This document shows positions 3,925 to 21,096 of a stretch of DNA of 64,000 nucleotides, in pieces. The stretch covers positions 9,132 through 73,131 of the forward strand of contig JANNVX010000001.1 of assembly GCA_031414595.1 (NCBI GenBank), written 5' to 3'. The translations under genes and the position numbers were made by a program. Source of the DNA: Deinococcales bacterium. GTDB taxonomy: Bacteria; Deinococcota; Deinococci; Deinococcales; JAAFIG01. Within the stretch, counting starts at the first letter, position 1. The number at the start of each line of letters is the position of its first letter. Below the pieces are notes generated by a model. The model did no database searches. It was not told the DNA's origin and worked only from the letters and a program-made list of their open reading frames with translations.

Positions 3925-5147
3925 GATGCTTCCTTTTTTCCTGCTCGAGCGTACATGGGCAGAGTTAGCGTTAAAATCAGTGCGCCACTAAATAAGGCTA
4001 ATCGCAGGTTTTTATTGCCCAGCCAACCAACCATTGGTCCGCCCGCAATTTGCCCAATCGCATCGGCTTGACCATTTAAGGACAGCACGGTTGCGCGGGT
4101 ACTAGACTCGAGACGCTGATTAAGCCAAGCCGTTCCAAGTGGGGCTTGAACTTCGCGGCAAGCTCGAGCCAAGACAAAAGCCAGCATTGCCACCCAAAAT
4201 CCGTTAGCAAAAGCAAAGACACTGATGCAGACAACAACGATACTCGAGCTAATAAGCAGTGTTCGCGTAATTTCTTGAATTGAATTCATGTTGATGCGTT
4301 TTGCCCAGAGGGTAAATGGTAATGCCACCAAGTCCACACACAAATCCAGCAGCAAAAAAACCAGCAATTGTTGTTGTACAGAACTCAGAAAACCAAGCTC
4401 GAGTTGCGGTAAGCCAAAACGAATCAAATGCAGTTGCCAGAGCCGATCAAAGGATTCCGAAGCTGCTCCTGAAACAATGGTAACAAGAAACAATAAACGA
4501 ATTGTTTTATTCCTAGTCGCAAACCCGATTGCCTCGAGCAAGGTTTTACGCATGGATTGCAAAGCATTTTCTCGAGTCACTGGTGTTGGTTTGAACTTGG
4601 TTTCGGGCATGGCAAACCACAAAAAAGCACTCAATGCCATAAAACCAATCCCGCCAACCACAATCGGGATTTGCAAACTTGAATTTGCTAACAGCAAAGC
4701 ACTAACAATAATTGCCAGACGGAGCGGAAAACGATACAGATTGACCCGAAGCATCAGTTGGTTCGCCTCGAGTTCACCAATTTCATCTGATAGCCACGCT
4801 TGGGTTGCCCCACTGGTAAAGGTGTAACCAATGCCCCACAGCACTTGAGCCGCTAAAACAGCGATAAAAGCTGGAATCAGACCCTCGAGTATAAAACCAA
4901 GCCCGACCAGTGCAAAACCAATCAGCACCGAGATTTTACGCGAAATCGTGTCTGCCACCACGCCTGTCGGAACTTCAAAGAGTAAAATCGCCAACTCAAG
5001 TGCCGTGCCAACCAGCACCAACTCGAGCGGCGAGAGTTTAATAATGGTTGCGTAATACAAAATGTTGGTACTGAAAACCAGTCCAAACAAGAAACTCGAG
5101 CCGAGGGTCAGGATTAAAAAAACCAATTGTGGTGATAAGCGTTTCAA
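3921..5147 (-). CDS. MFS efflux transporter, TetA(P)-like
   Basis: About 12 hydrophobic segments; LVGTALE...FEVPTGVVADTISRKISV and FTSGATQAW motifs. Confidence 0.8.
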   Translation of the reverse strand: MKRLSPQLVFLILTLGSSFLFGLVFSTNILYYATIIKLSPLELVLVGTALELAILLFEVPTGVVADTISRKISVLIGFALVGLGFILEGLIPAFIAVLAAQVLWGIGYTFTSGATQAWLSDEIGELEANQLMLRVNLYRFPLRLAIIVSALLLANSSLQIPIVVGGIGFMALSAFLWFAMPETKFKPTPVTRENALQSMRKTLLEAIGFATRNKTIRLLFLVTIVSGAASESFDRLWQLHLIRFGLPQLELGFLSSVQQQLLVFLLLDLCVDLVALPFTLWAKRINMNSIQEITRTLLISSSIVVVCISVFAFANGFWVAMLAFVLARACREVQAPLGTAWLNQRLESSTRATVLSLNGQADAIGQIAGGPMVGWLGNKNLRLALFSGALILTLTLPMYARAGKKEAS

Positions 5148-5183
5148 TATGTTTCTCCTTAATTAAAAGGGGTATGGTGAGTC

Positions 5184-5558
5184 ATGGCTGAAACTTTAGA
5201 ACTCAAACTATCCGAACTCGAGAATTTGCAAGTCAGTAAGCGCTTAGTAGGTGGCAAAGAAATTTTGTTGTACCGAAGTGATAACACCGTCAGTGCCATC
5301 TCGAGCAAGTGTTCGCATTTGAATGTCGCATTGCCAGCCAAAGCCGTCAATGGGATCATTACCTGTGGTTTCCACGGCGCACAATTTGACGCTAAAACTG
5401 GGGCTTGTTTGGTCGGGGCGCTTGGCAAGGACTGGCAGAAATCCACACCATTGGGAATTGGGGCATTGGCGGCGGCACTGATTCCAAAGAAGAATTCGCC
5501 AGACCTCGAGCGGTTTACCGTCGAAATTATTGGTGAAAACATGCGTGTGACGGTCTGA
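5184..5558 (+). CDS. Rieske [2Fe-2S] ferredoxin
   Basis: CSH...CGFHGAQFD Rieske motif. Confidence 0.85.
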   Translation: MAETLELKLSELENLQVSKRLVGGKEILLYRSDNTVSAISSKCSHLNVALPAKAVNGIITCGFHGAQFDAKTGACLVGALGKDWQKSTPLGIGALAAALIPKKNSPDLERFTVEIIGENMRVTV

Positions 5559-5559
5559 T

Positions 5560-5946
5560 TCATAACTGGATTAGCCCAGCTTTGGTTGGTCTAAAACCAC
5601 ACTTTTGGTAAAACGGCTCGAGGTGGTCTTCAAAATCCGCATGAACCCATTCGCAACCGTGCTGTTTGGCAAATGCCACCGCTCGAGCCAACAGTTCTTG
5701 TCCAATGCCACGGCGTTTGTAATCCTCGTGAACTGAAGGGTCGAGCAAAAACGCATGAACCCCAGCATCACCGATGAGTTTTACAAAACCTATCAGTCTC
5801 GAGCCATCAAAAGCACAAACGTAACACATCGTAGCCTCGAGTTCAGGTTGAAAATCTATGTTGGAAGGTTTACCCCATGCCGAAAAGAAAAGCTCATTCA
5901 GGGCGGTGTTCTCGAGCGGTGGACTGATTGCGTACTTTATGTTCAT
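5560..5946 (-). CDS. GNAT acetyltransferase
   Basis: VHEDYKRRGIGQELL...FYQKCGF; start moved to ATG 5946 with SD AAGGAG. Confidence 0.88.
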   Translation of the reverse strand: MNIKYAISPPLENTALNELFFSAWGKPSNIDFQPELEATMCYVCAFDGSRLIGFVKLIGDAGVHAFLLDPSVHEDYKRRGIGQELLARAVAFAKQHGCEWVHADFEDHLEPFYQKCGFRPTKAGLIQL

Positions 5947-5979
5947 TTGTCTCCTTACAGAGTTTGCTACACTGCTAAA

Positions 5980-6531
5980 ATGATTACCGAAAAGAGACTG
6001 AGTACAGAAGAATACTTTGAACTCGAGCAGCGTTCCGAAGTTCGTCATGAATTTGTGGATGGTGTGATGCACGCAATGGCTGGCGATAAGAAACAAAATA
6101 ATCGGGTCGTCAGACGATTGGTACGGTTACTTGATGCTGCGGCTGATGCCAAAAACTGCGATGTGTTTTTTACGGTTGTCAAAATGCAAGTCCCCAATGG
6201 AAAATACCGTTATCCAGATGTGGTTGTGACCTGCGAAGAAGATGCCGATGAATACCTGATTAAAGCACCTTGTGCGGTTTTTGAAGTGCTTTCTGACAGC
6301 ACAAGAGACGTGGACGAAAACGAAAAGCTCGAGGAGTACCTAAAAATTGCCAGTGTCCAGCGTTATGTGTTGCTGCGCCAAGATAGGGCTTTAGCGATGG
6401 TTTACTCGAGAGACAGGACTGAATGGCGTTTTTCTCTGCTCGAGAACACTGGCGAATTTGAGATTCCATGCTTAGGCTTAACGCTTAGGCTCGAGGATAT
6501 TTACACAGGAATTGTACCGCCAAGAATTTAA
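5980..6531 (+). CDS. Uma2 family PD-(D/E)XK endonuclease-like protein
   Basis: EEYFELE..SEVRHEFVDG..AMAG, YPDVVVTC, FEVLSDST; ATG 5980 with TACACT 6 nt upstream. Confidence 0.88.
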   Translation: MITEKRLSTEEYFELEQRSEVRHEFVDGVMHAMAGDKKQNNRVVRRLVRLLDAAADAKNCDVFFTVVKMQVPNGKYRYPDVVVTCEEDADEYLIKAPCAVFEVLSDSTRDVDENEKLEEYLKIASVQRYVLLRQDRALAMVYSRDRTEWRFSLLENTGEFEIPCLGLTLRLEDIYTGIVPPRI

Positions 6532-6977
6532 GTGCTTTGAAGCAGCAATTGCCGAATTGCACCGAAATGATAGGCAGTGTGGGTTAAAATCGCCACGCCA
6601 TCAGATAATTTGAGGTTGTTATCCTCTAATTTCTCTAAATCTTTAACCAAGGCGCTATAAGCAATTTGCAAACCCTCCCGCAAAGCTCGCCACTCGAGTT
6701 GGGTTACACCATGCGTTTGCCAACTGGCATCCCAATCGGTTTTGGCTGTCGCGCCATTCATGTAGCCATGCAGTGCCACCAGATAAACTCGAGTATGCTC
6801 GACATGAGCCGCAATGCTGCGCTGATTTTTAGACTCCACCGAGGCAGCTTCGGCACTGATGTTTTTTAGGGTCTCGAGCAATCCGCCTTTGGCACGGTCA
6901 AGATAAATGCCGCGTGGTTGTACAAAAGTTTCCTCGAGTATTTCTAGGATGTTGCTTTTTAGGGTTTCTTCAGACAT
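6528..6977 (-). CDS. DinB-like protein
   Basis: SIAAHVEH...THTAYHFGAIRQ. Confidence 0.75.
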   Translation of the reverse strand: MSEETLKSNILEILEETFVQPRGIYLDRAKGGLLETLKNISAEAASVESKNQRSIAAHVEHTRVYLVALHGYMNGATAKTDWDASWQTHGVTQLEWRALREGLQIAYSALVKDLEKLEDNNLKLSDGVAILTHTAYHFGAIRQLLLQST

Positions 6978-7800
6978 GAATCTCCTTATCCAAAAAATCC
7001 ATACGTTTCAATTCCTTAGAAACATACGCCAGTGCTGCTTGCTCGAGTGCTTCTGGGTACGTGGCATTCCAAGTTGTAGCGGCTTTTTTACCTGCTTTTT
7101 GCATCAGTGCCGCCAACTTAAAATGCGCCTGCACAATGCTTTGCGCCGAAAAGTTTGGTAAGTTCATGATGTTCTCGAGTTGCTGTTGTTCGTTGCCCTC
7201 GAGTAATTCGTTATAGCGCTGGTCGCCAACATCACGCAGCCTGCCACGCCCCAAAGAAAACACCAAAATCATCTGCACCATCATATGATGCAGCCGTTGC
7301 GAGGCAGACAGAATCTCGCCGCGTTCAATGCTTGGCAGTACCGAAAATAAGCTCCAGAAGTAACAAATTTCGACATACAGCGCTTTACGAATTTCTTCGG
7401 CGCTCGAGGGAACGGCTGGCACGGTTTTCAGGATGTGTTCACGGTCAAATAAAACTTGGCTTCGATGCTCGGTGATTTTTATATCGGCTATGGTGTCCAG
7501 CCAAGTCCCAATGGCAATGATGTCACCGTTTGGGTGCAGCAAAAGTGTACTAATCATGTTGCTGGCAAATAACTCATGATGCTTGAGGACTGGATGAAGC
7601 TGTTGTAAAATCGCCTCGTAATTGGCTCGAAAATCATCCAAATCTTCTTGATCCAGTGCAATGTGTATATCAATGTCAGAATGCCGGTCGCCTTGTCCAC
7701 GCCCAAGGCTACCCTCGAGCCAGACTGCTTTGACTCGAGTATCGGTTTTTAGTAATGCCGTGATTTGATTAGCAAACTCGAGTTGGATATTAGCGTTCAT
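6970..7800 (-). CDS. Nucleotidyltransferase domain protein
   Basis: WLEGSLGRGQGDRHSDIDI (GS...DxD). Confidence 0.8.
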   Translation of the reverse strand: MNANIQLEFANQITALLKTDTRVKAVWLEGSLGRGQGDRHSDIDIHIALDQEDLDDFRANYEAILQQLHPVLKHHELFASNMISTLLLHPNGDIIAIGTWLDTIADIKITEHRSQVLFDREHILKTVPAVPSSAEEIRKALYVEICYFWSLFSVLPSIERGEILSASQRLHHMMVQMILVFSLGRGRLRDVGDQRYNELLEGNEQQQLENIMNLPNFSAQSIVQAHFKLAALMQKAGKKAATTWNATYPEALEQAALAYVSKELKRMDFLDKEIHV

Positions 7801-8819
7801 AAAATATTCTCCATTTCCTCAGTCAGCATCGTGGTTTGCAGCGCTCGAGCTTTAGCTTGAATGATTTTTAGGGATGCTTGCCAATCTTTTTTAATACCAA
7901 AAGTGCTAAATGTTCGGCACAACCCTTGAATATCTCGCTCGAGAATCATTTTGGCGGTCGGTTGCTTAATGCTGACCACTTGCGGAAAGTCTATGACCAC
8001 ACATTCACCTTGCCACCACAGCAAATTAAAGGTTGAAAAATCGCCGTGAACCCGTCCTGTACTTAAAATTCTGGCGTACTGCTCGAGTGACTGGGCAAAG
8101 GCAATTTCAGCATCTTCTCGAGAAAGTCTGGCATCGGCTACGCGTTGCGCGACTTCGTTTTCATCGCCAATGAATTCCATCAGAATCACGCTGGCTTCAT
8201 GGGCTAGTGGCTTTGGCACTCGCACACCTGCGTTGTGCAGGGCGTGAAGTTGCTGAAATTCTTCTTGAACCCATAAAAAATTCTGGGCAGAAATTCCGGT
8301 TTCGGAGCGTTGGTCTATTGCTTTTTGTAAGCGTTTATCGTCTATATTGCGCCCTTCGCGGTAGAGCGCATCGTCCTTGAAACCACGCACCCTTGAATCC
8401 ACATAGAGCTTGGCAGCCACCAGCCCTGTTTGCCCTTCGCAGACATAAACCGTGGCTTCTTTACCGCTTTTGAGTTGCCACAGCACTTCTTTGATTAGTC
8501 CGCGAATAAAAAGTTCCTCGAGTCCAGAATCAATGAATTTTTTGTCATCGTTCTTAAAGTCAATGTCCGAAGCCGCATGAAGTTGGGCTACCGTGCGCCG
8601 CCGAGCGGGTTTACCCTTACCGAGTTTACGCGAACGGTCTTGGAATTCTTCGATTTTATCTAAGTTCTCGAGGTCTTCCCACCACGGCTCGTCGGTGGTT
8701 TCGAGGTTTTCAGGCTCGGGCGCAGTTTCGGCTCGAGAGATTTTATTGATTTTGGTAAGTTCAAAAGTATTTGGGACAGTATTTTCTGTCAGCGCAATCA
8801 GCGCAGCATGACGCGGCAT
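7797..8819 (-). CDS. RIO1-family atypical protein kinase
   Basis: LKSGKEATVY, AAKLY, VHGDFSTFNLL, VIDFPQ. Confidence 0.9.
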   Translation of the reverse strand: MPRHAALIALTENTVPNTFELTKINKISRAETAPEPENLETTDEPWWEDLENLDKIEEFQDRSRKLGKGKPARRRTVAQLHAASDIDFKNDDKKFIDSGLEELFIRGLIKEVLWQLKSGKEATVYVCEGQTGLVAAKLYVDSRVRGFKDDALYREGRNIDDKRLQKAIDQRSETGISAQNFLWVQEEFQQLHALHNAGVRVPKPLAHEASVILMEFIGDENEVAQRVADARLSREDAEIAFAQSLEQYARILSTGRVHGDFSTFNLLWWQGECVVIDFPQVVSIKQPTAKMILERDIQGLCRTFSTFGIKKDWQASLKIIQAKARALQTTMLTEEMENIL

Positions 8820-8887
8820 CAGAGAACCACCAAATGGTGTTTAGGTTGACAGTACAAAGGTGATGCTGCAAAGAATTTGGGAATCAC
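8819..8887 (-). CDS. Putative leader peptide 2 (22 aa, VIPKFFAASPLYCQPKHHLVVL)
   Basis: SD AGGAG, GTG start; its TGA overlaps the RIO kinase ATG (TGATG). Confidence 0.45.
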   Translation of the reverse strand: MIPKFFAASPLYCQPKHHLVVL

Positions 8888-8975
8888 GGTTACTCCTAAA
8901 AGTAGGGAAAACAAAGCTATTACTGGTTCGAGACACGGTTCTCTCGAGTCGGACAATGGTTTGGTTGTGATTCAT
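8841..8975 (-). CDS. Putative leader peptide 1 (44 aa, MNHNQTIVRLERTVSRTSNSFVFPTFRSNRDSQILCSITFVLST)
   Basis: Strong SD AAAGGAGGT upstream of ATG 8975; below the ORF-track length cutoff. Confidence 0.55.
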   Translation of the reverse strand: MNHNQTIVRLERTVSRTSNSFVFPTFRSNRDSQILCSITFVLST

Positions 8976-9052
8976 ATACAGCACCTCCTTTGGCTTGAAT
9001 GCAAAATCTTAGCACGTTTTTTTGCTTGGTGTGGCATCGGCTAAATGGCGTA

Positions 9053-10021
9053 TCAATTTTTAATGATTAACTTACCCTTGGCATGACCTAAACCAAGGTA
9101 GGTGAGCGCTTCTGGCAACTCGAGCAACCCATATTCTTTTTCAATCACGGGCTTGACTGCACCCGTCTCGAGCAATTTTACAAGGTACTTTAAGTCGTCA
9201 GTGTTTGGTTTGACTAATAAATTCAAGAATTTTTGTTGCCCTGTCATACCCATTACCGAGCCTAAAAACAACATTTGTAGGATGTTGCCGATTGCACCGC
9301 CAGCCATCACATAGCGCCCTTGGGGTTTTAGCAGTGGCTTGAACTCGAGGAACGAACGATAAGCCGCCACATCAAAAATTAAGTCAAAACGCTGCGTAAG
9401 TTTGGTCGGGTCTTGTTTGCTGTAATCCAGCACATGGTCTGCCCCGATTTCGCGCACCATCTCGAGTTTAGTAGTGCTGCACACCGCCGTGACTTCTGCG
9501 CCGAGTGCTTTGGCAATCTGCACCGCATATGTTCCCACGCCACCCGAAGCACCGTTAATTAAAACCTTCTGCCCTGCGCTTAATAGCCCTAAGTCACGCA
9601 GTCCTTGCAGCGCAGTGGTGGCTGCATTTGGAATCGCAGCGACTTGTTCAAAACTTAAACTGCTTGGTTTATGCACCAGTGCCTTAGCGTCCACACACAC
9701 AAATTCGGCAAATGCCCCAAATCCATACTCGGCAAGGTTGGCAAAGACTTCATCACCGATTTCAAAAGTTGTGACATTCTGACCAACAGCGCGGACAATA
9801 CCCGCCATATCCGAGCCTAAAATAGTGTGTTTGGGCTTAAAAAATCCGTAAGCGGCGCGTACCAAAAATGGTGTACCTGTCAGCAAATGGTAATCGCCAG
9901 AATTAACCGAAGCGGCTTTAATTTCAATCAATACCTGATGGTCTTTGGGGATAGGTTGCTCGAGTTCGCTCAGGGTTAAAACCGAAGGTGAACCGTATTG
10001 GGTGTAGGTCATGGCTTTCAT
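9053..10021 (-). CDS. NAD(P)-dependent MDR/quinone oxidoreductase family protein
   Basis: AASVN, LGSDMAG, VLINGASGGVG. Confidence 0.9.
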   Translation of the reverse strand: MKAMTYTQYGSPSVLTLSELEQPIPKDHQVLIEIKAASVNSGDYHLLTGTPFLVRAAYGFFKPKHTILGSDMAGIVRAVGQNVTTFEIGDEVFANLAEYGFGAFAEFVCVDAKALVHKPSSLSFEQVAAIPNAATTALQGLRDLGLLSAGQKVLINGASGGVGTYAVQIAKALGAEVTAVCSTTKLEMVREIGADHVLDYSKQDPTKLTQRFDLIFDVAAYRSFLEFKPLLKPQGRYVMAGGAIGNILQMLFLGSVMGMTGQQKFLNLLVKPNTDDLKYLVKLLETGAVKPVIEKEYGLLELPEALTYLGLGHAKGKLIIKN

Positions 10022-10638
10022 GTTGTTGCTCCTTGCTTAAATCCTTTAACAAGTAACCAAATCGGGAAAACAATTTCAAATAACGCACCGGGTAAGAACA
10101 GCACTTGGCTACTTGGCATACCAATCAACTCGAGAATGACGCTCAGGCTTAGAAAGCAATAGCCAAGTATTCCAAGTACCGCCAACCAAACGGGTACAAG
10201 TTTTGTGGACAGTAACAAAAAACAAAGCATGAGGCTACCAACCCCTAAAAAAATCATGGCGGTGTTAAAACTAAGGTCATGCGCGGCTCGAGCAGTAGCT
10301 AAGGCATTGGGTAAATCAAAGTGACTACCAAGTTGGGTAATCAGCAAAACAGCCATTGTACCAACCGATAATAAAACGCTTTCGATCAACCGAAACCCTA
10401 AGTAAGCCGTCGCAATCACCAAACTATGCCGATGCAGAGCGCTAAAGAGCAGTACGCCAATTAAAAATACCCCAATCGAATTGATGACCTCTAAAAACGC
10501 GCCAATAAAAACCTGATTTTTCATAGCTGTAAATGCAGTTGCCGAAGCTAGTGCAGACTCGAGTAAGCTGTTTGCCACCAGAAAACTGGTGGTGGTAACT
10601 AAAAATAAAACTGCTGCGATTCTAAGTTGAGTGTTCAT
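10018..10638 (-). CDS. DUF4386-like membrane protein
   Basis: Multi-TM; LVPVWLAVLG...PGALFEIVFPIWLLVKGF. Confidence 0.7.
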   Translation of the reverse strand: MNTQLRIAAVLFLVTTTSFLVANSLLESALASATAFTAMKNQVFIGAFLEVINSIGVFLIGVLLFSALHRHSLVIATAYLGFRLIESVLLSVGTMAVLLITQLGSHFDLPNALATARAAHDLSFNTAMIFLGVGSLMLCFLLLSTKLVPVWLAVLGILGYCFLSLSVILELIGMPSSQVLFLPGALFEIVFPIWLLVKGFKQGATT

Positions 10639-11357
10639 AAAAGTCCTTCTTTTGAAATGGTTCGAGTTTTTCTAAAACTTTGAATTAAAAGCCAGACACA
10701 AAGTGATAATTCGCCAACGGCAGCAAGTAATGCCACCAGCAGGACAAAAATATCTTTGTAGTCGTTGTAATTAGGCAGCCCAAAACGGACAAAAGTATCG
10801 GCGGTATAGGCAATTCCAGCCAGTACCAATAAAAAACCAATGGCTCGAGGGACGTGGTTAGTGGTCAGAATCAAATAGCCAAGGGTCAGTAAATGAAACC
10901 CAAAAAACAACAAACCAATCAGCCAGCCAAGCTGGAATGAGTCGTAAGACATCAGGGCTTGAACTTCTATTTGTTGTGTCGTGAAGGCTGTATTTGTATT
11001 TTGTAAAATGAGTAGCATCTGATACAAGTGCAAAATTGCCACCGCAAAAATAGCCGTGTAGACCAAGCGAAAATAAGCTGCCAATAACGATAAATTGTCA
11101 TTAAGTTGTTTCATGTACAGGTAGAGCGCCCATGTCACCAGCACATCGCAGACCAGAACAACAAAAAAACCAATCATTCCAAAGCGAAAAAGTGTTGGAT
11201 TCTCGAGAATCTTGGCAGCTGTTTTAGCGGCATCGGTCGGGATAATCAGTCCTTCGACAACAACAAAATTAGAAAAAACAGCGGCAAAGAACATCAGCAG
11301 TAAGCCAAGTCCAGCGACTCGAGCCATGAGTGGTGATTGTGGTGATAATGAATTCAT
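10635..11357 (-). CDS. DUF4386-like membrane protein
   Basis: ARVAG...CDVLV.WALY...FRLVY...GELSLCVWLL. Confidence 0.75.
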   Translation of the reverse strand: MNSLSPQSPLMARVAGLGLLLMFFAAVFSNFVVVEGLIIPTDAAKTAAKILENPTLFRFGMIGFFVVLVCDVLVTWALYLYMKQLNDNLSLLAAYFRLVYTAIFAVAILHLYQMLLILQNTNTAFTTQQIEVQALMSYDSFQLGWLIGLLFFGFHLLTLGYLILTTNHVPRAIGFLLVLAGIAYTADTFVRFGLPNYNDYKDIFVLLVALLAAVGELSLCVWLLIQSFRKTRTISKEGLL

Positions 11358-12308: not shown

Positions 12309-13541
12309 TTAGAATTCGACGCTGTAGCCAGTGCCATCTTCGGAGCGCAGAATTTTACCGTTAATGTCCCACTGAAAGCCTTTACTGGACGCACTAAATG
12401 GGTCTATCGGCATTTTATCAAAGTACCTGCCCTCGAGAACCCCAAGGTTGGCTGGGGGTACGCCTTCGGTCAGGGCAGATGTGGCATGGAGCGCCAAACT
12501 GACTTGGGTGGCACGGTAGGCTTGGGTCAGTTTACAGGCTCTGGTTGCCAGTCCGTAAGGCGGTATCCAACTTCTAAGTAGCGCATTACCGACACTATTC
12601 GCCGCTAATGGATTGGTATTTAGAAAAGCTGGGTCGGTCGGGCTTTGGGCATCTTTGGCTTCTGGGCAGTTGCCAGCCCGTTTTAAGATTCCCTCGAGCC
12701 AAAGCGTGTAGGTCTCGAGGGTTTTACCTGTTTGCAGCGAATAAGCACTGGGCATAAAACGCACAATTGGCGAACTGACATTGATTCGCAGGGTTTGCCC
12801 TGCGGTTTTGCCTGTGGCAGCATCGAGTGCCAACCTAAAAAAACGCCGTTCTGATTTTAGGCTCTCCTCGAGCGACAAGGGGTTTGGGGCTTGGGCTTGG
12901 AGTTCTTTAAGGATATTACGCCAAGTTTGATCATCGAAATTACTTTGGCGCATTGCGCCGCGCATTTGGGTTAAGACCAATTGCCCAAGGCTATCGCCCA
13001 CGTCTAACTCGAGCAGCGAGCCTTTGGCATTACGAATTAGGTTCGCGGCTTTCCAGACCAAGAAATAATCCTGCCAAGCCGATTTCGCGTCCCCGCTTTG
13101 TAAATATAAATTGGCTCGAAGCAAAACCAGTTCACTAAGTTGATGCCATGCTTTAACATCGCGGGGTAAGGCAGCCACATTGACCGCATCAAAATCGGCG
13201 TATTGTGGGTCTCTGGCACGACTGAGCGAATTAACCTTAGCAATACCGCTTTCAAAAGTTGCTATGGCATCTAAATTACCGCTTGTCAAACGTGCCGCCT
13301 CGGACTGAATCCAATTACCAGGTTGTAAAAAAATCCGTGGTTCAATGCCTCGTAAATTCATTTTGGCGGCGGCTTCAGAAAAAAGTGCTAGTGCATTGGT
13401 ATTTGTGGGAATTGTCTCCAGTTTCGGTTCTAAATTAACTCGAGGTGGACTGGCTTGGTCTGGAGCAAATAACGGCAAACCAAAGTTAAAACCAAGCAGC
13501 AAGACCAACACAAAACCAACACCAATCAAAAATGGACGCAT
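12309..13541 (-). CDS. Hypothetical membrane-anchored helical protein
   Basis: 410-aa ORF, N-terminal TM; C-terminal PANLGVL..YFDKMPIDPFS resembles pilin/GspG-like tails. Confidence 0.65.
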   Translation of the reverse strand: MRPFLIGVGFVLVLLLGFNFGLPLFAPDQASPPRVNLEPKLETIPTNTNALALFSEAAAKMNLRGIEPRIFLQPGNWIQSEAARLTSGNLDAIATFESGIAKVNSLSRARDPQYADFDAVNVAALPRDVKAWHQLSELVLLRANLYLQSGDAKSAWQDYFLVWKAANLIRNAKGSLLELDVGDSLGQLVLTQMRGAMRQSNFDDQTWRNILKELQAQAPNPLSLEESLKSERRFFRLALDAATGKTAGQTLRINVSSPIVRFMPSAYSLQTGKTLETYTLWLEGILKRAGNCPEAKDAQSPTDPAFLNTNPLAANSVGNALLRSWIPPYGLATRACKLTQAYRATQVSLALHATSALTEGVPPANLGVLEGRYFDKMPIDPFSASSKGFQWDINGKILRSEDGTGYSVEF

Positions 13542-13621
13542 GATAATGCCAAGTCTACCGCACCGACTCGAGGGCGGAGTGGTAAGAATGCCTATCGCAA
13601 CTCGAGGCAGAAAAAGGCATA

Positions 13622-16600
13622 ATGGAACGGATGTCTGTCACCACGTTATCGCGTTATCAAGTGGTCAAGGAACTCGGCGCGGGAGCAATGGGTCGGGTCT
13701 CTTTGGCGTTGGATACAGCAACCGGCGAATTGGTGGCACTCAAACGTTTACACGAAATGGTGGCTTTGCAAGGTGGCGCTCGCTTGCGGCGTGAATCCAA
13801 GGCTTTAGAACGAATTAATGACCCCAATGTGGTTAAGGTGCTGGGTTACGGCGAAGATGAAGGCATTCCGTACTTGGTGATGGAATACGTCCGAGGCACA
13901 GATTTAACCCAGTTTGTAACTGAAAAACCGACCATAGACCGAATTGTGCAAGTCTTTATCGGCATTTGCAACGCACTGGCAGCCGTGCATGGACAAGGTA
14001 TTATTCATAGGGACTTAAAACCAGACAATATCCGTGTAACCCTTGAAGGCGACGCTAAACTGATGGACTTTGGTTTGGCAAAATCCTTAGAAGGCACGGT
14101 TGCCTTGACTCGAGCCGGTGCAGTGGTTGGTACGGTCTTGTATATGGCACCCGAGCAGTGCAGGGGCGCTCAACTCGATTACCGTGCCGACTTGTACGCG
14201 CTGGGTGCAGTTTTATTTTGGGCTTTAACGGGCAGACCACCATTTACTGGCGACGGGCTTGCCCAAGTGATTATGCAGCACATTCAAGCCCCACCGCCCA
14301 GACCGAGCAGCATCAATCCAAGTATCCCCGCGCCACTTGAACAGATCGTCTTAAAACTGATGGAAAAAAATCCTGCCGAGCGCCCACCCAGTGCTTTAGC
14401 AGTCCGTGACCTTTTAATTGGTTTGTCGAATCAAACCATGGAAATTAACCTTTCAACCGAAGTGGCTCGAGCCGATGCGCTCCTTATTGCTCCGCTCATT
14501 GGGCGCGATGCCGAAATCGGTTTGCTGATGCCGCTTTTAGAAGAACCCGAACCAGTTTATGGGGTGTATGCAATTACAGGTGATGTTGGCACAGGAAAAA
14601 CTCGGTTAATCAAAGCCTTTTCAGAAACCGCCAGAGGCGCTGGAACACGTTTTGCCCCCGGAGAAGCCATTCCAGACGACCCAACCCCTTTTGGCGCAAT
14701 CTCGAGAATGATTGGCAACTTGCAAAAAAGCAATAAGAACTTTGTCGAGAACCTACCCGAGAACATCAAAGGCGAATTGGCACGGATTGTGCCGAGTCTA
14801 GGCAGTGCTGCCCCAAGCGACCCGAACCTTCCAGCCGATGTTGCCAGGTTACGCTTATTTGAAGCCTTTAGCGAATTCTTAGAACGGGTTTCTGAGATTA
14901 CCGTGGTGGTTCTCGAGAATTTGCACTGGGCAGACGACAGCACCTTAGCAGCCCTTGCCCATGCCACTCGAGCCGTACAGAAACCACGTTTATTGGTCAC
15001 ATATCGGCTGGAGGATTTACCCGAAGGTCAAACCCTGCCCAAAGGCTTAGCCCGTCCGAGAACCCTGATTAACCTTAAACCAATGTCGGACAACGACATG
15101 CGTGAACTCTTAAAATCATGGTTGGATGGCGACCTTGACAGCACTTTAGAAACCGAATTGGTCAATCATGCGGCTGGCAACCCTTGGGTTCTCGAGGAAC
15201 GCTTAAAAGCAATGCTTGAATCTGGGGCAATTTATCGTCAGAACGGGGTCTACCAATGGCAGCACTCGATGCAGAGCTTGCCCGAGAGCCTGAACGATTT
15301 GCTCGCCCACCGCATCGAAGCCTTAAAACCAGATAGCCTCGAATTTGCCCGTGCTGCCAGTGTGCTTGGCAGGGCATGGCAGTACGAAGATGTACGGCAA
15401 CTGCTTGAATGGGGCGATGACACTGCCCTCGATGCCTTAGAAAGCCTGACTCGAGCCAGACTCGTCACCGAAATCCCCGGTAGCAACGGCGAAGGTTTTA
15501 GATTTACCCACCCGCTCTATAGCGAAATTCTACTTGACGGTATCATCAGCCTCAAACGCCGTCGTCTGCACAAAAAAGCCGCCATCCTGCTCGAGAACCG
15601 CGCCAGTCCAGTCGAACTTGCCAATCATCATTTTTATGCCGAGCAGTTTGAACAAGCCCTAACAAAAGCCGTTGAAGGTGGCTTAATTGCCCAGAGCAGC
15701 TTTGCGTACCCGCAAGCCGAACGCGCCTACCGTTTGGCACTTGAAGCCAATGCCAAATTAGCAACCGAATCGCTCAAGGCTTTTGAAGCCCGTTTGCACT
15801 TGGGTGAAGTATTGAGCCACTCGGGACGCAACGACGAAGCCATTGCTTTCTGGCAATATGTGATAGACAACGCGGCTACACTCGAGGGCAGCCAGAGCGT
15901 ATTGGCTCAAACCCGCTTAAAATTTGGCAATGTGCTGCGTTTTTCGGGTTCGGTGGACAAAGCCCGCGATATTATTGGGCAGTACGGTATAGACGACCCG
16001 TTTTATGAAGAACTGGAAATCGAAGCCAGTCATATCCACCGCTTAAAAAAAGATTTTATGACCGCCAAACACCACGGACTCGAGGCGTTACGTGCCAGTA
16101 AACTTGCCCAAAATCCGCGTGGAACAGCACGGGCATTACTTGCTTTATCGCAACTCGAGGTGGCGTTGGGGAATTTAAGCCGAGCCACCAACCTTGCAAA
16201 AATTGCCACCACGATTGTCGAAACCACCGATGATGATTACCTAAAAACAATGGCATGGAATGACCTTGGCAGCCGTTACTACATGTTAGACCAACAAAAA
16301 GAACTGCTTTTTGCTTGGAATAAAGCCAGTGAATACGCCCAAAAAACAGGGGATGTTCGCTCGAGAATTGTGATTCAAACCAATCTGGCGCTCTCGATTG
16401 CTTCCGAAGAAGACTTTGAAGAAGCCAGAACCCGTTTCAAAGCCACCCGAGAAATGGCACTCCGAGCGGGGCTGTACGCCCAAGAAAAAACAATTCTCTA
16501 TAACCTTGCCGAAACAGAATATGCGCTTGGCAACCTCGAAGTCGCCAGAGAACACTTTCAAGATGTCAAAAATAACGCTTATGAAAATGCTTCTAAAATT

Positions 16601-17038
16601 TGGGAATCCCGCATTACCTTAGAACTCGGCGATGGTTTTGTCTTTGAATTGCCCGAACTCGAAGGGCGTTTTGCCACCGAAAACAGGCGTTTACTCGAGG
16701 TGCTGTACGCCCTGTCCTTTGGCGATTACGAAAAAGCCTATGAAGACACCAGTCAAAGCAACACCGAACAAGATTGGTTCTGGAATTTGTCCCGGGTTCA
16801 TGCAGCTTGGCGATTAGGACACGACACCAGTCAAGCCTTGGCTGCACTGCGCCAACCTCCAGCCGAAACCAAATTAGCTCCACATTTGCGATTAGCCTAT
16901 CTTGATTTTGTACAACAACTCCTGCTCGAGAACACACCTGAACGAATCAAAACGCTGCGAATTCTCGCCGATAAATACCGAACTTCCAGTGTTGGCTTAC
17001 TGGCGCGTGATGTACTTTTGACCTTACCAGAGGGCTAA
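13622..17038 (+). CDS. Ser/Thr kinase - P-loop NTPase (STAND-like) - TPR multidomain protein
   Basis: LGAGAMG, VALK, HRDLKPDN, DFG, YMAPEQ; GDVGTGKT, VVLENLHWAD, GNP, FTHPL; helical repeat C-terminus. Confidence 0.9.
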   Translation: MERMSVTTLSRYQVVKELGAGAMGRVSLALDTATGELVALKRLHEMVALQGGARLRRESKALERINDPNVVKVLGYGEDEGIPYLVMEYVRGTDLTQFVTEKPTIDRIVQVFIGICNALAAVHGQGIIHRDLKPDNIRVTLEGDAKLMDFGLAKSLEGTVALTRAGAVVGTVLYMAPEQCRGAQLDYRADLYALGAVLFWALTGRPPFTGDGLAQVIMQHIQAPPPRPSSINPSIPAPLEQIVLKLMEKNPAERPPSALAVRDLLIGLSNQTMEINLSTEVARADALLIAPLIGRDAEIGLLMPLLEEPEPVYGVYAITGDVGTGKTRLIKAFSETARGAGTRFAPGEAIPDDPTPFGAISRMIGNLQKSNKNFVENLPENIKGELARIVPSLGSAAPSDPNLPADVARLRLFEAFSEFLERVSEITVVVLENLHWADDSTLAALAHATRAVQKPRLLVTYRLEDLPEGQTLPKGLARPRTLINLKPMSDNDMRELLKSWLDGDLDSTLETELVNHAAGNPWVLEERLKAMLESGAIYRQNGVYQWQHSMQSLPESLNDLLAHRIEALKPDSLEFARAASVLGRAWQYEDVRQLLEWGDDTALDALESLTRARLVTEIPGSNGEGFRFTHPLYSEILLDGIISLKRRRLHKKAAILLENRASPVELANHHFYAEQFEQALTKAVEGGLIAQSSFAYPQAERAYRLALEANAKLATESLKAFEARLHLGEVLSHSGRNDEAIAFWQYVIDNAATLEGSQSVLAQTRLKFGNVLRFSGSVDKARDIIGQYGIDDPFYEELEIEASHIHRLKKDFMTAKHHGLEALRASKLAQNPRGTARALLALSQLEVALGNLSRATNLAKIATTIVETTDDDYLKTMAWNDLGSRYYMLDQQKELLFAWNKASEYAQKTGDVRSRIVIQTNLALSIASEEDFEEARTRFKATREMALRAGLYAQEKTILYNLAETEYALGNLEVAREHFQDVKNNAYENASKIWESRITLELGDGFVFELPELEGRFATENRRLLEVLYALSFGDYEKAYEDTSQSNTEQDWFWNLSRVHAAWRLGHDTSQALAALRQPPAETKLAPHLRLAYLDFVQQLLLENTPERIKTLRILADKYRTSSVGLLARDVLLTLPEG

Positions 17039-17105
17039 TGTAGGTTTTGTAACGCTTTTGTGACGCTTGTGATGTAGAATGACCTTGTATATTCAAGGAG
17101 GCTTT

Positions 17106-17789
17106 ATGAAAATGAAAGTTATGTTGGGTTTGGTCGCCGTTTCGTTACTCGCTTCGTGTGGTTTGATTAAAACCCCACCAATTGTTTTACAAGACACCAC
17201 CAAAACACCCAACCCTACCGTTGGCGGTGGAGCGCTTGGAATTGATGGTAAGGGTGCGCCGCTTGACCTCTCTAAAGGCGGTATCGCGCTTCAAGGCACA
17301 AAAAATGGGGTTGTGATTGCATCAGGTACATTTGCTGATGTCACAGACCAACAAGTTAAAGACAATATTGCCCGTTTAGCTGAATGGGGCTACACCCAAA
17401 CCATGCCAACCGCAACTTTGAGCGGTGCAAATTGCCCCGCCAGCTTTGCCATGACCAATGCCAGCTTTACAGCCACAATCAGCGACGCAGGTGGGACTGC
17501 TGGAGCAACCCGCAGCGCTTCAGCCACAACCAGTGTTGCTTCGGTTAGCTTTGCTGCACAATCAGCTGGAGGCTGTACCTACAATGCCACCGTCAATGGC
17601 GCGGCGGCAGCAGTTACAGGGATTTTAACAGGAACAGGACTCGCAACCCTTGGTCAAATTATCATCAATGGTGGCGCTAATACTGCCAGCCTGACAGGTA
17701 CATACACCACCCCAGACACATTGGCTGGTCGCACCCTAACCATCAACTTTGGTGGCTCGAGTTCGTATGTGATTGCCACAATCCTCTAA
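17106..17789 (+). CDS. Hypothetical lipoprotein (Thr/Ala/Gly rich)
   Basis: SD AAGGAGG; lipobox LLASC. Confidence 0.75.
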   Translation: MKMKVMLGLVAVSLLASCGLIKTPPIVLQDTTKTPNPTVGGGALGIDGKGAPLDLSKGGIALQGTKNGVVIASGTFADVTDQQVKDNIARLAEWGYTQTMPTATLSGANCPASFAMTNASFTATISDAGGTAGATRSASATTSVASVSFAAQSAGGCTYNATVNGAAAAVTGILTGTGLATLGQIIINGGANTASLTGTYTTPDTLAGRTLTINFGGSSSYVIATIL

Positions 17790-17798
17790 ATTTAGCCT

Positions 17799-17832
17799 AA
17801 AAAAAGACAAGCCAATTGGCTTGTCTTTTTTT
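17799..17832. terminator. Bidirectional hairpin terminator
   Basis: AAAAAAGACAAGCCAATTGGCTTGTCTTTTTT. Confidence 0.75.
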
Positions 17833-17913
17833 ATTCTTGGTGCAGTTTTTAGGCTTCTCGAGCCGCCAAAAATTCCTTACTCAAGATATTCAAATCGGTT
17901 AAACTTTATTGCA

Positions 17914-18744
17914 ATGCAGACATTCTTGTTTGGCGAGGACATACCCAGTGTTAAAGAGTTATCGCCACCACTTAAATGGGCTGGTGGCAAACGTTGGCTT
18001 GTGCCACAATTGCGCGAGGTTTGGGCGCACCATGCCCACCGTCGTTTGGTAGAACCTTTTTCGGGCGGATTAGCCATTGCTTTAGGTTTGATGCCTAAAG
18101 ATGCACTCTTAAACGACATTAACCCGCATCTCATCAACTTCTATCACTGGTTACAAAAAGGATTAAAGCTCGAGTTAAAACCACAACACGACGAAACTTA
18201 TTTTTACCAAAAACGGCAACGGTTTAACGATTTGGTGCTGACTAAGCAAGAAACAAGCCAAGAAGCCGCCGAGCTTTTCTATTATTTGAATCGCACCTGC
18301 TTTAATGGGTTATGTCGTTTTAACAAAAGTGGCGGCTTCAATGTGCCGTTTGGCAAATACACAACCATTAACTACGCAACTGACTTCCTCGAGTACCGAA
18401 GTCTCGTGCAGTCTTGGAATTTCACCATCGGAGACTTCGAGAAAATCACCCTTGAGCCTGATGATTTTGTCTATGCCGACCCGCCATACGATGTTGAATT
18501 CACCACCTATAGTGCTGGTGGCTTCACATGGGATGACCAAATTCGGGTTGCCAGATGGTTAGCCGCTCATACAGGGGTAGTCATCACTTCTAATCAAGCC
18601 ACACCAAGAATTATTGACCTTTACACCCAACTTGGTTTTCAAATAAAAACACTCGAAGCACCACGCCGCATCTCATCATCTGGCGACAGAACCCCAGCCC
18701 TTGAAATGCTGGCGTATAGGAACACAATATGGAACGAGAAATAG
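17914..18744 (+). CDS. Dam-family (D12, alpha-group) N6-adenine DNA methyltransferase
   Basis: LKWAGGK, EPFSGG, NDIN, YLNRTCFNGL.RFN..GGFNVPFG, YADPPY. Confidence 0.92.
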   Translation: MQTFLFGEDIPSVKELSPPLKWAGGKRWLVPQLREVWAHHAHRRLVEPFSGGLAIALGLMPKDALLNDINPHLINFYHWLQKGLKLELKPQHDETYFYQKRQRFNDLVLTKQETSQEAAELFYYLNRTCFNGLCRFNKSGGFNVPFGKYTTINYATDFLEYRSLVQSWNFTIGDFEKITLEPDDFVYADPPYDVEFTTYSAGGFTWDDQIRVARWLAAHTGVVITSNQATPRIIDLYTQLGFQIKTLEAPRRISSSGDRTPALEMLAYRNTIWNEK

Positions 18745-19352
18745 CACTGGCACGCTTTGCAGAACTGATTGGGCAGGATTTACGACCACTTGCCCAGACC
18801 TACGAAGTGACCTTTATTGCAAAAAACGGCAAAATTAACAAAGGTTGGGCTGGTCATGTTGCCGAGCGTTATTTAGGGCTGCCACTGAACTCATCTCGAG
18901 CGCCTAATTTTGGCTCGTGGGAACTTAAAGTTGTGCCGTTTAAGTACCTCAAAAATGGGCTGCTTGTTCCCAAAGAAACAATGGCAATCACGATGCTTGA
19001 CCCGTTTGAAGTGGCAGGAAAAACATTTACCGAAAGCCACCTTTACACAAAACTGAGAAAGCAAATTATTCTTGCCCGAATTTTTGTAGACCAAGCCGAA
19101 ACGACTTCTTTGGTTTATGGAGTAAAAGCCTTTGATTTAGGCGACACCGAGTTATTTCAAACCGTTGAAGCAGATTACAACCTGATTCGTGAGGCAATCC
19201 TTGACGGCGTTCCCTTGACTGGAAGCATGGGCAAACTGATTCAACCCAGAACCAAAGGACAAGGTGGTGCAGCCCCAAAAACTCGAGCTTTTTATGCAAG
19301 AAAAGAATTTTTAACTTCGGTCTTTAGGGGTAAGTACGATTTAGCGGTCTAA
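18729..19352 (+). CDS. MutH/Sau3AI-family endonuclease-like protein (single domain)
   Basis: NKGWAGHVAERYLG, WELKVVP, PKETMAIT, DY..IR, QPRTKG, RAFYARK; overlaps the MTase. Confidence 0.8.
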   Translation: MEREIALARFAELIGQDLRPLAQTYEVTFIAKNGKINKGWAGHVAERYLGLPLNSSRAPNFGSWELKVVPFKYLKNGLLVPKETMAITMLDPFEVAGKTFTESHLYTKLRKQIILARIFVDQAETTSLVYGVKAFDLGDTELFQTVEADYNLIREAILDGVPLTGSMGKLIQPRTKGQGGAAPKTRAFYARKEFLTSVFRGKYDLAV

Positions 19353-19354
19353 AT

Positions 19355-19717
19355 TTAGAAGATTGGTTCGTCTTTGATGGTGGCAACTTCTAGTGGCAAC
19401 TGTACAGCCAGCCAATGCGGTAAATTCATCGTTAGTTCTTTTACAGGTAAGTCTAATAGTGGTAAGTGAAAACCGTACTGATGACCTTCTGGTAAGCAGT
19501 ACAGCGCAGCAATACGCAATTGACAAACCATTTCAGAATCGTTGGAAAGCCAGAAATCTATGTCATCATTAATTTGATAATCTAATGTTTCTTTGTCGTA
19601 CCAGACACCAACAGAAGCCAAATGAGTTTTCAATGGATGCTCATTTAAGTTTAGAGCCTGAACTTGGGTTGGATTGAGACCATTTGTAAAAGCAACTTGA
19701 ATTTGCGTTTCAGACAT
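19355..19717 (-). CDS. Hypothetical protein (120 aa)
   Basis: ATG 19717 with SD GAGGT; AT-rich; no motif recognised. Confidence 0.5.
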   Translation of the reverse strand: MSETQIQVAFTNGLNPTQVQALNLNEHPLKTHLASVGVWYDKETLDYQINDDIDFWLSNDSEMVCQLRIAALYCLPEGHQYGFHLPLLDLPVKELTMNLPHWLAVQLPLEVATIKDEPIF

Positions 19718-19815
19718 AATTACACCTCTAAAGCAGTATAGCATAATTATTACCAAAAAACCATAAACAGAAGTTTTTATTTTTGCAAATAAACGAATGT
19801 TGAGTTTCCCATTTT

Positions 19816-19848
19816 TTAAACTTTGACCGAAGCAGCCATGTTTTTCAT
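19816..19848 (-). pseudogene. Probable AbiEii toxin N-terminal remnant (MKNMAASVKV*)
   Basis: ATGA overlap with the AbiEi stop; resembles typical AbiEii N-termini (KN.AASV...). Confidence 0.55.
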
Positions 19849-20453
19849 GCCAGTACCGTTTCGGTATAAGAACGCATTTTTTGTTCGACCAAGCAGACTT
19901 TGGCGGCGGCAAAAAGTTTTTTTAAGTCACGGTCGGAATGGTTTAAGTAGCTTTTTAAGGCTTCAAGAAAAATACTTCGTTCAATCCGGTGACTTAAATG
20001 CAGCACGTCAGCTAAAGTTTTTTCTTTGGAATAAATCCGAATTTGTCCGCCACCAACAGCATAGGTTTGGATACCATACTCAAATTGTTGAGGCGAAAAA
20101 TAGTACAAAGCAAGCGGGGGATACTCGAGTTTAGGACGACGAGCTTTATTGGCAATGGCTAAGTGAATTTCAGATGGTACAACCGTCCCTAACTGATAAA
20201 AAGCCAAAGCTGAAAGGCAACAAATCACCGCCTTGGGAATTCGCAGCATCACCTCGAGCAAATGGTCTTGGTCTGTACCAGCACTACCAACCAAGCGGTA
20301 CACACCGTACTGAGTGCGTTCCAACAAACCAAGTTTGGTGTAGTAAGAAAGCCAATGGGCTGGCAAATCAGTCCCTTGAATCATTTTGGTGGACACCAAA
20401 CCGTGATGCTGAGCAAATAGGCTCGAAAGGGCTTGTGGTAGAACAGTATTCAT
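19845..20453 (-). CDS. Type IV TA antitoxin AbiEi family
   Basis: GLLER..YGVYRL, AVICCLSAL.FYQL, IYSKEKTLAD. Confidence 0.88.
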   Translation of the reverse strand: MNTVLPQALSSLFAQHHGLVSTKMIQGTDLPAHWLSYYTKLGLLERTQYGVYRLVGSAGTDQDHLLEVMLRIPKAVICCLSALAFYQLGTVVPSEIHLAIANKARRPKLEYPPLALYYFSPQQFEYGIQTYAVGGGQIRIYSKEKTLADVLHLSHRIERSIFLEALKSYLNHSDRDLKKLFAAAKVCLVEQKMRSYTETVLA

Positions 20454-20494
20454 AAAGTGTCGGTAGTTTACCATAATTACCGACACTTTATGAA
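20449..20494. promoter_or_regulatory. 17-bp perfect inverted repeat, probable AbiEi operator
   Basis: TTCATAAAGTGTCGGTA-N12-TACCGACACTTTATGAA overlapping the AbiEi start. Confidence 0.75.
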
Positions 20495-20505
20495 ATTATT
20501 AGAAT

Positions 20506-21096
20506 TTAGGCTTCTCGAGCCGCCGCTATAAAAGCCCTGATTTTACTCGCATCTTTAATTCCAGCCGTACTTTCTACGCCACTCGAGACATCTACACCCC
20601 AAGGCTTAAGTTGCTGCACAGCCTGTCTAACATTGTCTGGATTTAAGCCGCCCGCCAGTAGCCAACGCCGATTTTTAAGGTGTGAAGTGTCCACTGCCCT
20701 CCAATCAAAGACTTGTCCAGACCCCGCCTCAAGACCGTCCAAGAGCAGGGTTTGGGCTGGTGGCATGACCATTTGCAGTTGGTAGGAAACAGCCCGAATG
20801 ACTGGGAAGTGCTGCTCGAGACGGGTCACAAATTCATCGGTTTCTGAGCCGTGTAGCTGTACTGCACTCAGTTGCACTTGCCGAGCAGTTTGCACTATCT
20901 CCTCGAGTGAAACATTTCTAAAAACCCCAATTCTCGAGACCAAGCCACTGATTTGACTCGAGATTCGTGCCGCATTGACTGGCAAAATATAGCGTTTGGT
21001 GTTTGGCACAAAAATAAAACCAATCGCATCTGCCCCAGCTTCTTCACATGCCAGTGCATCCTCAAACCTTGTGATGCCACAAATTTTTATTCGCAT
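20506..21096 (-). CDS. trpF: Phosphoribosylanthranilate isomerase
   Basis: IKICGIT, VQLHGSE, LAGGLNPDNV, GVDVSSGVE. Confidence 0.95.
   Translation of the reverse strand: MRIKICGITRFEDALACEEAGADAIGFIFVPNTKRYILPVNAARISSQISGLVSRIGVFRNVSLEEIVQTARQVQLSAVQLHGSETDEFVTRLEQHFPVIRAVSYQLQMVMPPAQTLLLDGLEAGSGQVFDWRAVDTSHLKNRRWLLAGGLNPDNVRQAVQQLKPWGVDVSSGVESTAGIKDASKIRAFIAAAREA

Follow-up and report, generated by a model that had tools for sequence, protein, structure and literature searches.

Leader reading frames that set the expression of the gene behind them are known from several systems. In the erm and cat/cmlA resistance genes, leader-peptide translation attenuation operates through a short leader open reading frame (ORF) with a strong Shine-Dalgarno sequence (SD), and for the tetA(L) gene of Bacillus subtilis, whose inducer is tetracycline, translational reinitiation after a single leader ORF has been proposed. 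The RNA phage MS2 has a start site masked through long-range pairing, together with a lysis gene that lies in the +1 frame inside the coat gene and depends on the translation of the latter. In stop-start coupling at ATGA or TGATG overlaps, an upstream stop overlaps a downstream start with a weak SD (reviewed in PMC12548453), and in Sinorhizobium meliloti an upstream ORF (uORF) with its own ribosome-binding site (RBS) sets the output of the main ORF through coupling and RBS occlusion (PMC13285730). A survey of leader genes ending 10–16 bp before structural genes reported reinitiation-linked distance peaks at 10–11 bp in most phyla and at 15–16 bp in Firmicutes, with Deinococcus-Thermus among the groups showing a peak (Korolev et al., 2016; PMC4833913). 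The present analysis concerns the leader of a gene for a RIO1-domain (RioB-type) kinase in a stretch of 64,000 nucleotides from a Deinococcales bacterium (contig JANNVX010000001.1, positions 9,132 to 73,131; hereafter the window), in which two nested uORFs end at or near the start of the kinase gene.

The leader lies on the minus strand, immediately upstream of the gene for the 340-aa kinase (7797..8819). Its first SD (SD1, 8982..8991) is the 10-nt sequence AAAGGAGGTG, a perfect complement of the 3′ end of the genome's own 16S rRNA (GGAUCACCUCCUUUCU), with an energy of −15.8 kcal/mol against the 16S tail. It is followed by ORF1 (8841..8975), which runs from an ATG at 8975 to a TAA at 8843–8841, comprises 44 codons and the TAA, and ends 21 nt before the kinase ATG; ORF1 and the kinase share one frame and are separated by this TAA and seven codons. 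Inside ORF1, the second SD (SD2, AGGAG, 8893..8897; −6.8 kcal/mol against the 16S tail) precedes ORF2 (8819..8887), which extends over 22 codons in the +1 frame relative to ORF1, from a GTG at 8887 to a TGA at 8821–8819. The two frames meet the kinase at a TGATG junction, where the A of the ORF2 TGA is the first base of the kinase ATG at 8819. Both ORFs and their SDs had been pointed out in the initial annotation of this DNA and were recovered as described, SD1 being, at 10 nt, one nucleotide longer than noted. The same annotation considered the kinase to have no obvious SD of its own. The site is indeed weak, but the start is not wholly without one, as an SD-like GGTGG (8827..8831) with −8.5 kcal/mol against the 16S tail is located 8–12 nt before the ATG. 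The mean SD energies over 39 leaders were −17.1 kcal/mol for SD1, −7.0 kcal/mol for SD2 and −6.3 kcal/mol for the kinase, and SD1 was the strongest of the three in 39/39; the difference between the kinase and SD1 means corresponds to the weak downstream RBS expected of stop-start coupling. In an alignment of 33 leaders the GGAGGTG of SD1 was conserved, and the GGAG of SD2 was invariant or nearly so.

This arrangement is unique in its genome. Both strands of the 4.49-Mb sequence were scanned for a strong SD with an ATG-initiated ORF of 25–70 codons, enclosing an out-of-frame SD with an ORF of 12–60 codons, the stop of this inner ORF having to overlap the start of a third ORF with no fewer than 150 codons, and exactly one occurrence was found, which is the present locus. 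An nhmmer profile of the leader likewise gave a single match in its own genome (E 6.5e-49), the next one having an E value of 0.22. RIO homologues were found in 27 of 41 related genomes, and the leader is kept upstream of RIO homologues even where the gene further upstream differs. The leader profile matched 37 of 108 fetched RIO loci (E ≤ 0.001), all of them from the family of the window or from Deinococcus; no match at this threshold was obtained in RIO loci from records titled Trueperaceae, Meiothermus/Thermaceae, Chloroflexota, Bacteroidota or Proteobacteria. With a sequence-only covariance model, the leader was detected in 50 of 151 genomes of the order, almost always in a single copy, and the matches per family were 15/18 (f1), 34/36 (f3, whose named leader-bearing records are Deinococcus), 0/37 (f2), 0/23 (f4) and 0/36 (f5). 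All 17 of the newly fetched primary model matches lie directly upstream of a RIO homologue.

The architecture was tallied in 55 leader-bearing loci (38 + 17), which had been chosen for a leader detected earlier; two further loci (L065 and L092), flagged by the coupled-ORF script alone and having neither SD1/ORF1 nor a profile match, were removed beforehand, and as the genomes are related, the counts overstate independence. ORF1 was present in 54/55 loci, ORF2 in 54/55 and both in 53/55, so that the conservation upstream of related RIO genes, which the initial annotation had named as a check, was borne out. The length of ORF1 was 35–52 codons, and that of ORF2 was 19–31 codons in 50/53. All 53 leaders have ORF2 in +1 relative to ORF1, with a stop that overlaps the kinase start or directly adjoins it, as stop-start coupling requires, through ATGA (34), TGATG (5), TAATG (5), TTGA (4), GTGA (4) or TAGATG (1) junctions. 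ORF1 is in frame with the kinase in 52/53 (L007 being the exception), the ORF1 ATG is separated from the kinase start by a multiple of three nucleotides in 52/53, and 17 of the 18 distinct leader lengths, which range from 126 to 213 nt, are divisible by three. The ORF1 stop is placed 12–21 nt before the kinase start in 43/53. ORF2 begins with TTG (29), GTG (19) or ATG (5), and ORF1 ends with TAA (27), TGA (22) or TAG (4). Judged by these comparisons, the double-uORF leader is conserved across Deinococcus and its sister family of uncultured Deinococcales.

The reading frames appear to be under selection while the encoded peptides drift. The chance of both frames being open, estimated with dinucleotide shuffles, gave a product of about 10^-8.6 over 12 lineage representatives, a value that is not a true probability because the lineages are related, and stops were present in the unused third frame in 11 of the 12. 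The double-uORF layout is far beyond chance. Within five clades, the fraction of variable columns in ORF1 was 0.38/0.38/0.36 at the three codon positions (p 0.93), that is, without codon periodicity, whereas the kinase, treated by the same method as a control, gave 0.19/0.14/0.51 (p 1e-65). Between clades the leader peptides are unalignable, except for the R-S encoded by AGGAGT. Synonymous changes, which at first seemed to be present in the tail of ORF1, were not upheld by the codon-position test. Since ORF1 substitutions lack codon periodicity, it is the translation of the uORFs, and not their peptides, that appears to be selected. On the strength of the alignments, both leader ORFs are real and selected as open frames, and the act of translating them, not the peptide product, is what seems to matter. 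The combination of constrained frames and drifting peptides fits regulatory uORFs and disfavours both small proteins and an untranslated RNA element.

Set against the described systems, the leader shares with stop-start coupling the overlap of an upstream stop with a weak-SD downstream start, and with the S. meliloti case a uORF with its own RBS that would set the output of the main ORF (PMC12548453; PMC13285730). It differs from both in having two nested uORFs in different frames which end at or near the main start, the first of which crosses the start site of the second, and in being kept over two families for one gene family. The leader genes ending 10–16 bp before structural genes are the closest printed idea, and the ORF1 stop distance of 12–21 nt comes close to that class; however, the survey is statistical, and no mention of a RIO kinase leader or of a second, nested ORF is made in its accessible part (PMC4833913). 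By its sequence features the RIO leader conforms to stop-start coupling, whereas of erm/cat-type attenuation it has the short leader ORF but no conserved arrest peptide. The tetA(L) leader resembles it in having a leader ORF with a strong RBS terminating near the main start, but consists of one ORF, not two overlapping ones. MS2 is alike in its distant masking and its out-of-frame inner ORF; it is a viral genome and not a cellular mRNA leader, and no homology is implied. No description of a double-uORF leader of a RIO kinase was found in literature searches.

The initial annotation had allowed for a promoter located downstream of the uORFs, which would remove them from the kinase transcript. 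The relevant evidence comes from Deinococcus deserti, in which the RIO-like kinase gene Deide_19990 (291 aa, TTG start) has its sole transcription start site (TSS, listed as gTSS) at −171, upstream of the uORFs, according to differential RNA sequencing (dRNA-seq; PMC4007540, Tables S3/S5/S8). Its −10 element is TACCGT, flanked by TGGCCTGC and ACATGCA, and the TSS reads rose upon treatment with terminator exonuclease (TEX), from 4771 to 10047 in unirradiated and from 12412 to 23040 in irradiated cells (PMC4007540). The same 21 nt are present in the leader-bearing locus L114, where the TSS falls 7 nt after the −10 element, 10 nt before SD1 and 24 nt before the ORF1 ATG. In at least this species, therefore, the downstream promoter that would have refuted the initial proposal is not seen: the kinase mRNA has its start immediately in front of the uORFs, and no TSS closer to the kinase is on record. 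The 14 leader peptides given in the accessible part of that study include none for the RIO-like kinase gene (PMC4007540). In the window, an extended −10 element TGCTAAGAT (9006..9014, minus strand; hexamer TAAGAT at 9011–9006) predicts a TSS near 8999, and its TGnTAnnnT pattern is conserved about 30 nt upstream of each ORF1 ATG in the leader alignment. A consensus promoter and terminator scan of the minus strand between 8819 and 9052 returned nothing, and the −10 element was missed by it because the −35 is poor; the window promoter was recognised through conservation and the D. deserti TSS alone. Thus a promoter just upstream of SD1, which is documented in D. deserti, is probably present in the window as well. 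A look for RNA runs covering positions 8300–9100 of the window yielded none. As a separate observation, Deide_19990 counts were about 2–2.6 times higher in irradiated than in unirradiated cells (TSS 12412 vs 4771, coding sequence 697 vs 334), the libraries being single and unnormalised (PMC4007540, Tables S2 and S8).

These results are best accommodated, with somewhat better than even confidence, by a translational-coupling relay in which the leader hands ribosomes to the SD-poor kinase start. Transcription would start at the leader's own promoter just upstream of SD1, and the very strong SD1 would load ribosomes onto ORF1. ORF2 would be initiated at the weaker SD2 inside ORF1, in the +1 frame, and would terminate on the kinase start codon at a TGATG or ATGA junction, whereas ORF1 translation would end 12–21 nt ahead of that codon. 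Ribosomes finishing ORF2, and perhaps those finishing ORF1 too, could then re-initiate at the kinase ATG, so that kinase output would be proportional to uORF translation. As the kinase's own SD is weak, most of its synthesis would be expected to come from re-initiation. Observed are the anatomy of the leader and its conservation, the way in which reading frames, lengths and stops are constrained, and, for a single species, the TSS; re-initiation is the route to the kinase that the arrangement of these signals suggests. Finally, an anti-SD-like segment would pair with SD1 and restrain the loading of ORF1 on the folded mRNA, keeping kinase synthesis low and translation-dependent.

The last step is based on RNA folding, which the initial annotation had proposed as a check and which gave a divided answer. 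In minimum free energy (MFE) folds, the segment CAGCATCACCTTTG (8855..8868, minus strand) is the predicted partner of SD1 and its flanks (8994–8979), the pairing in the window being CAAAGGAGGUGCUG with CAGCAUCACCUUUG. In 29/36 folds, at least four of five SD1 bases were paired with a segment located at the ORF2 start or beyond it, as compared with 16.3 expected when the downstream part was shuffled. RNAalifold applied to the genus recovered 7 pairs of the SD1/anti-SD helix, and the ORF1 start region had an unpaired probability of 0.24. The 5′ and 3′ strands of a leader pair better with each other than with those of another lineage (−26.2 vs −18.6 kcal/mol, 7/7 clades), and for the SD1 side the own strands were better than swapped ones in 18/25 GC-matched clusters. 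Masking of SD1 by a downstream segment is therefore likely in the models, and a restraining role of the helix may be supposed, while the rest of the leader fold is treated as lineage-specific.

Several observations weigh against the relay and its masked entry site. No consensus structure emerged from RNAalifold over all 33 leaders (0 pairs); within the genus the helices contain only invariant or one-sided pairs, with no double compensatory change, and in Deinococcus the program returned a local CACC...GGUG hairpin alone. The MFE z-scores are weak (mean −0.84). A helix joining the opening codons of ORF1 to the start of ORF2 had been considered as a general feature. Inspected by eye, it suggested covariation in three forms (GAAUCAC:GUGAUUC in the genus, AUCACU:AGUGAU in one Deinococcus group, AUAUGAA:UUCAUAU in the genus g5); it is not claimed as general, because the own strands beat crossed ones in 12/25 clusters only. 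When a footprint was forced on the ORF1 start in silico, the accessibility of the ORF2 start changed from 0.39 to 0.42 (23/39 up, p 0.087). The region around the kinase start, with an unpaired probability of 0.47 and a weak SD, may permit independent initiation. Ribosomes translating ORF1 also pass over the ORF2 start and could repress rather than help ORF2. Moreover, in the D. deserti table the proteome column contains nothing for Deide_19990 (PMC4007540).

A sharper version of the relay idea, and the one closest to the initial annotation, which had envisaged a two-step attenuator sensing ribosome stress by analogy with erm and cat, is an inducible attenuator. A ribosome stalled in ORF1 by an inhibitor or by a ribosome defect would hold the 5′ strand and free the ORF2 start, and coupling would then turn on the kinase and the other genes that carry such a leader. 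It is a possible but rather unlikely explanation. A short leader ORF with its own SD, as in erm and cat, is present (ORF1 in 54/55), SD1 and its flanks are predicted to pair with a segment adjoining the ORF2 start, and downstream translation would in both cases depend on the leader ORF. Further arguments come from the genes that follow. A more sensitive model search of the family, in which the matches were fetched, revealed sister leaders with the full layout, in which SD1-ORF1 and AGGAG-ORF2 are both present and the second stop overlaps the main start. In two species (L110, 267–422; L130, minus strand) such a leader precedes the gene for an Adenyl_transf/ANT-like nucleotidyltransferase, and in L109 (279–437) that for a 294-aa GNAT protein with weak AAC(6')-like matches; these sister leaders belong to the genus g5. 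Homologues of the ANT-like and GNAT genes are found directly behind the RIO kinase in other genera. In variant leaders identified by eye, the long gene itself begins at the SD2 position within ORF1; it encodes an MsbA/multidrug-type ABC exporter in L135 (minus strand) and an unknown 320-aa protein in L129 (150–235). At L135 the leader is similar to the one before the RIO gene of its own genome (L009), even in the first codons past SD2. Behind the kinase gene of the window come genes for an ANT-like protein, a GNAT and an MFS transporter, and behind Deide_19990 comes one of the glyoxalase/bleomycin-resistance family.

The yield of this search was uneven. Among 18 weak model matches (L129–L146), the full layout was found by script in one (L130); of eight inspected by eye, two had the variant layout (L129, L135) and six nothing, and the remaining nine, assessed by script only, showed no layout. 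A second model match in one genome (L111 in G084) turned out to be an ordinary gene start with a strong SD and not a leader.

Against the attenuator stands the drift of the peptides: neither a between-clade peptide motif nor codon periodicity was found in ORF1, unlike in sequence-specific arrest peptides, so that the conserved arrest peptide or codon context of the erm/cat type was not seen in the periodicity test or the between-clade comparison. Occupancy of the ORF1 start brought no significant exposure of the ORF2 start in silico. In the RIO leader, unlike in erm and cat, the main start would be reached via a coupled second uORF and not by unmasking of its own SD. The resistance-like labels are domain-level matches, and because they fall under the curated family cut-offs, they are suggestive only. 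What is supported of the initial proposal is the pair of coupled, conserved uORFs, and the erm/cat analogy is favoured by the sister leaders before ANT-like, GNAT and ABC-exporter genes; the sensing of ribosome stress by the leader is conjectural. A broader and more doubtful extension would see in these leaders a shared ribosome-status sensor through which impaired translation would activate a small regulon (RioB kinase, ANT-like nucleotidyltransferase, GNAT and ABC exporter), the RIO kinase being a ribosome- or drug-directed stress kinase and the super-strong SD with its internal anti-SD mimic reading the supply of competent 30S subunits. The sister leaders do suggest one control logic for modifying and export genes which, if true, would be a pointer to the purpose of RioB.

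The leader might also act as an RNA operator whose ligand is a protein, a component of the ribosome or a small molecule, the ORFs being secondary; candidates would be RioB itself or free 30S, recognised through the SD/anti-SD mimic. The nucleotide conservation of the leader, which is intermediate between the first/second and third codon positions of the kinase, the perfect 10-nt match of SD1 to the 16S tail together with the resemblance of its partner to that tail, and the co-variation of the strands in swap tests agree with such an operator. However, the length changes in multiples of three (52/53 leaders), the two open frames beside a third with stops and the variation of the ORF2 start among start codons only would be unexpected for an untranslated RNA. 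There is no consensus fold, and no Rfam family matches: the region 8500–9300 of the window gave a chance match alone (E 8.4), and six leader-bearing loci gave no match at E ≤ 1. An operator of this kind is accordingly regarded as quite unlikely. It is very improbable that ORF1 and/or ORF2 encode functional small proteins acting with the kinase: both have an SD and are conserved as ORFs beside it, but the peptides are unalignable between clades apart from the R-S from AGGAGT, ORF1 has no codon periodicity (p 0.93), unlike the kinase (p 1e-65), and the strings tried had no match in the sORF-peptide supplements for D. radiodurans, which was a weak search. Recoding, by which read-through or frameshifting would fuse ORF1 to the kinase into a longer protein, is extremely unlikely, for although the two are in frame in 52/53 leaders with one stop and 4–7 codons between them in most, the shared frame is an arithmetical consequence of the +1 position of ORF2 relative to ORF1 and of its overlap with the kinase start, ORF1 makes use of all three stop codons (TAA 27, TGA 22, TAG 4), L007 is out of frame, and neither ORF1 nor the gap shows amino-acid conservation.

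The translational-coupling relay is thus retained as the preferred reading. The conserved leader offers a first regulatory handle on the poorly understood bacterial RIO kinase and a clean natural case of nested uORFs, whose frames, lengths and stop positions are under selection while the peptides drift. It would also be of use as a model of translation-dependent control within a phylum noted for its leaderless mRNAs.

The identity of the kinase, as given in the initial annotation, was supported by a match to Pfam RIO1 (PF01163) of 128 bits (cut-off 22, E 4.2e-37, residues 124–310). The motifs S118-G-K-E-A-T123, H258-G-D260-x-S-x-x-N265 and I276-D277-x-P-Q280 were invariant among 12 aligned sequences, and correspond to the nucleotide-binding, catalytic and metal-binding loops, respectively. 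Among solved structures the best match was 1zp9_A, listed as Rio1 kinase (E 3.2e-23), which we take to be the Archaeoglobus fulgidus Rio1 protein, and all 15 matches were Rio1/2/3. The score against NCBIfam NF041645 (PA4780-family RIO1-like kinase, equivalog) was 171 bits, below the cut-off of 350, which makes the protein a relative and not a member of that family. The in vivo role of bacterial RIO (RioB) kinases is regarded as unestablished and the group as poorly characterised in the part of the literature consulted (PMC5815136).

Downstream of the kinase, on the same strand, follow the ANT(6)/Adenyl_transf-like nucleotidyltransferase gene (6970..7800), an unknown 149-aa ORF, the GNAT gene, an unknown 134-aa ORF and the MFS transporter gene. 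The control of this downstream cluster by the leader, as initially put forward, holds at most locally: at its ATG the nucleotidyltransferase gene has a 4-nt overlap with the kinase stop, but what stands behind the kinase varies among genomes, and for this reason the kinase is regarded as the constant partner of the leader. Upstream of the leader lies a gene for a zinc-type dehydrogenase (ADH), and upstream of the latter tandem DUF4386 genes (240 and 206 aa; 10018–11357 of the window, minus strand).

Directly after the stop codon of the ADH gene, a 16-bp imperfect palindrome TACGCCATTTAGCCGA (9037..9052, minus strand) forms a candidate operator. Nearly all leaders carry a TA[G/A/C]GC-N6-GC[C/T]TA box, 67–94 nt ahead of the ORF1 ATG, and in many Deinococcus loci it is the perfect palindrome TAGGCGTGATGGCCTA. 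It may be bound by a regulator, and we take its 5-N6-5 geometry to resemble CRP/FNR-type sites. In ten Deinococcus loci no conserved divergent regulator gene was found upstream of the leader. The TACGCCATTT box has 30 copies in the genome, and no regulon is evident for it, since these lie mostly in unrelated contexts. Of the sister leaders, that of L110 is preceded by TAAGC-N6-GCTTA and that of L109 by an imperfect TAAGC-N6-ACTTA.

The genome is also peculiar in its word composition. Its commonest hexamer is CTCGAG, with 23,235 copies against 972 expected from base composition (24-fold); the window contains 306 sites compared with 7.7 in shuffles, one of them inside ORF1 (8943–8948), and the word is frequent in the loci of relatives as well. 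In this, CTCGAG resembles highly iterated palindromes such as HIP1. Other 6-bp palindromes are nearly absent from the 4.49 Mb, where GGGCCC occurs 0, TGCGCA 2, CGATCG 3 and GACGTC 3 times, with about 800–970 copies expected for each, a scarcity which suggests restriction avoidance.

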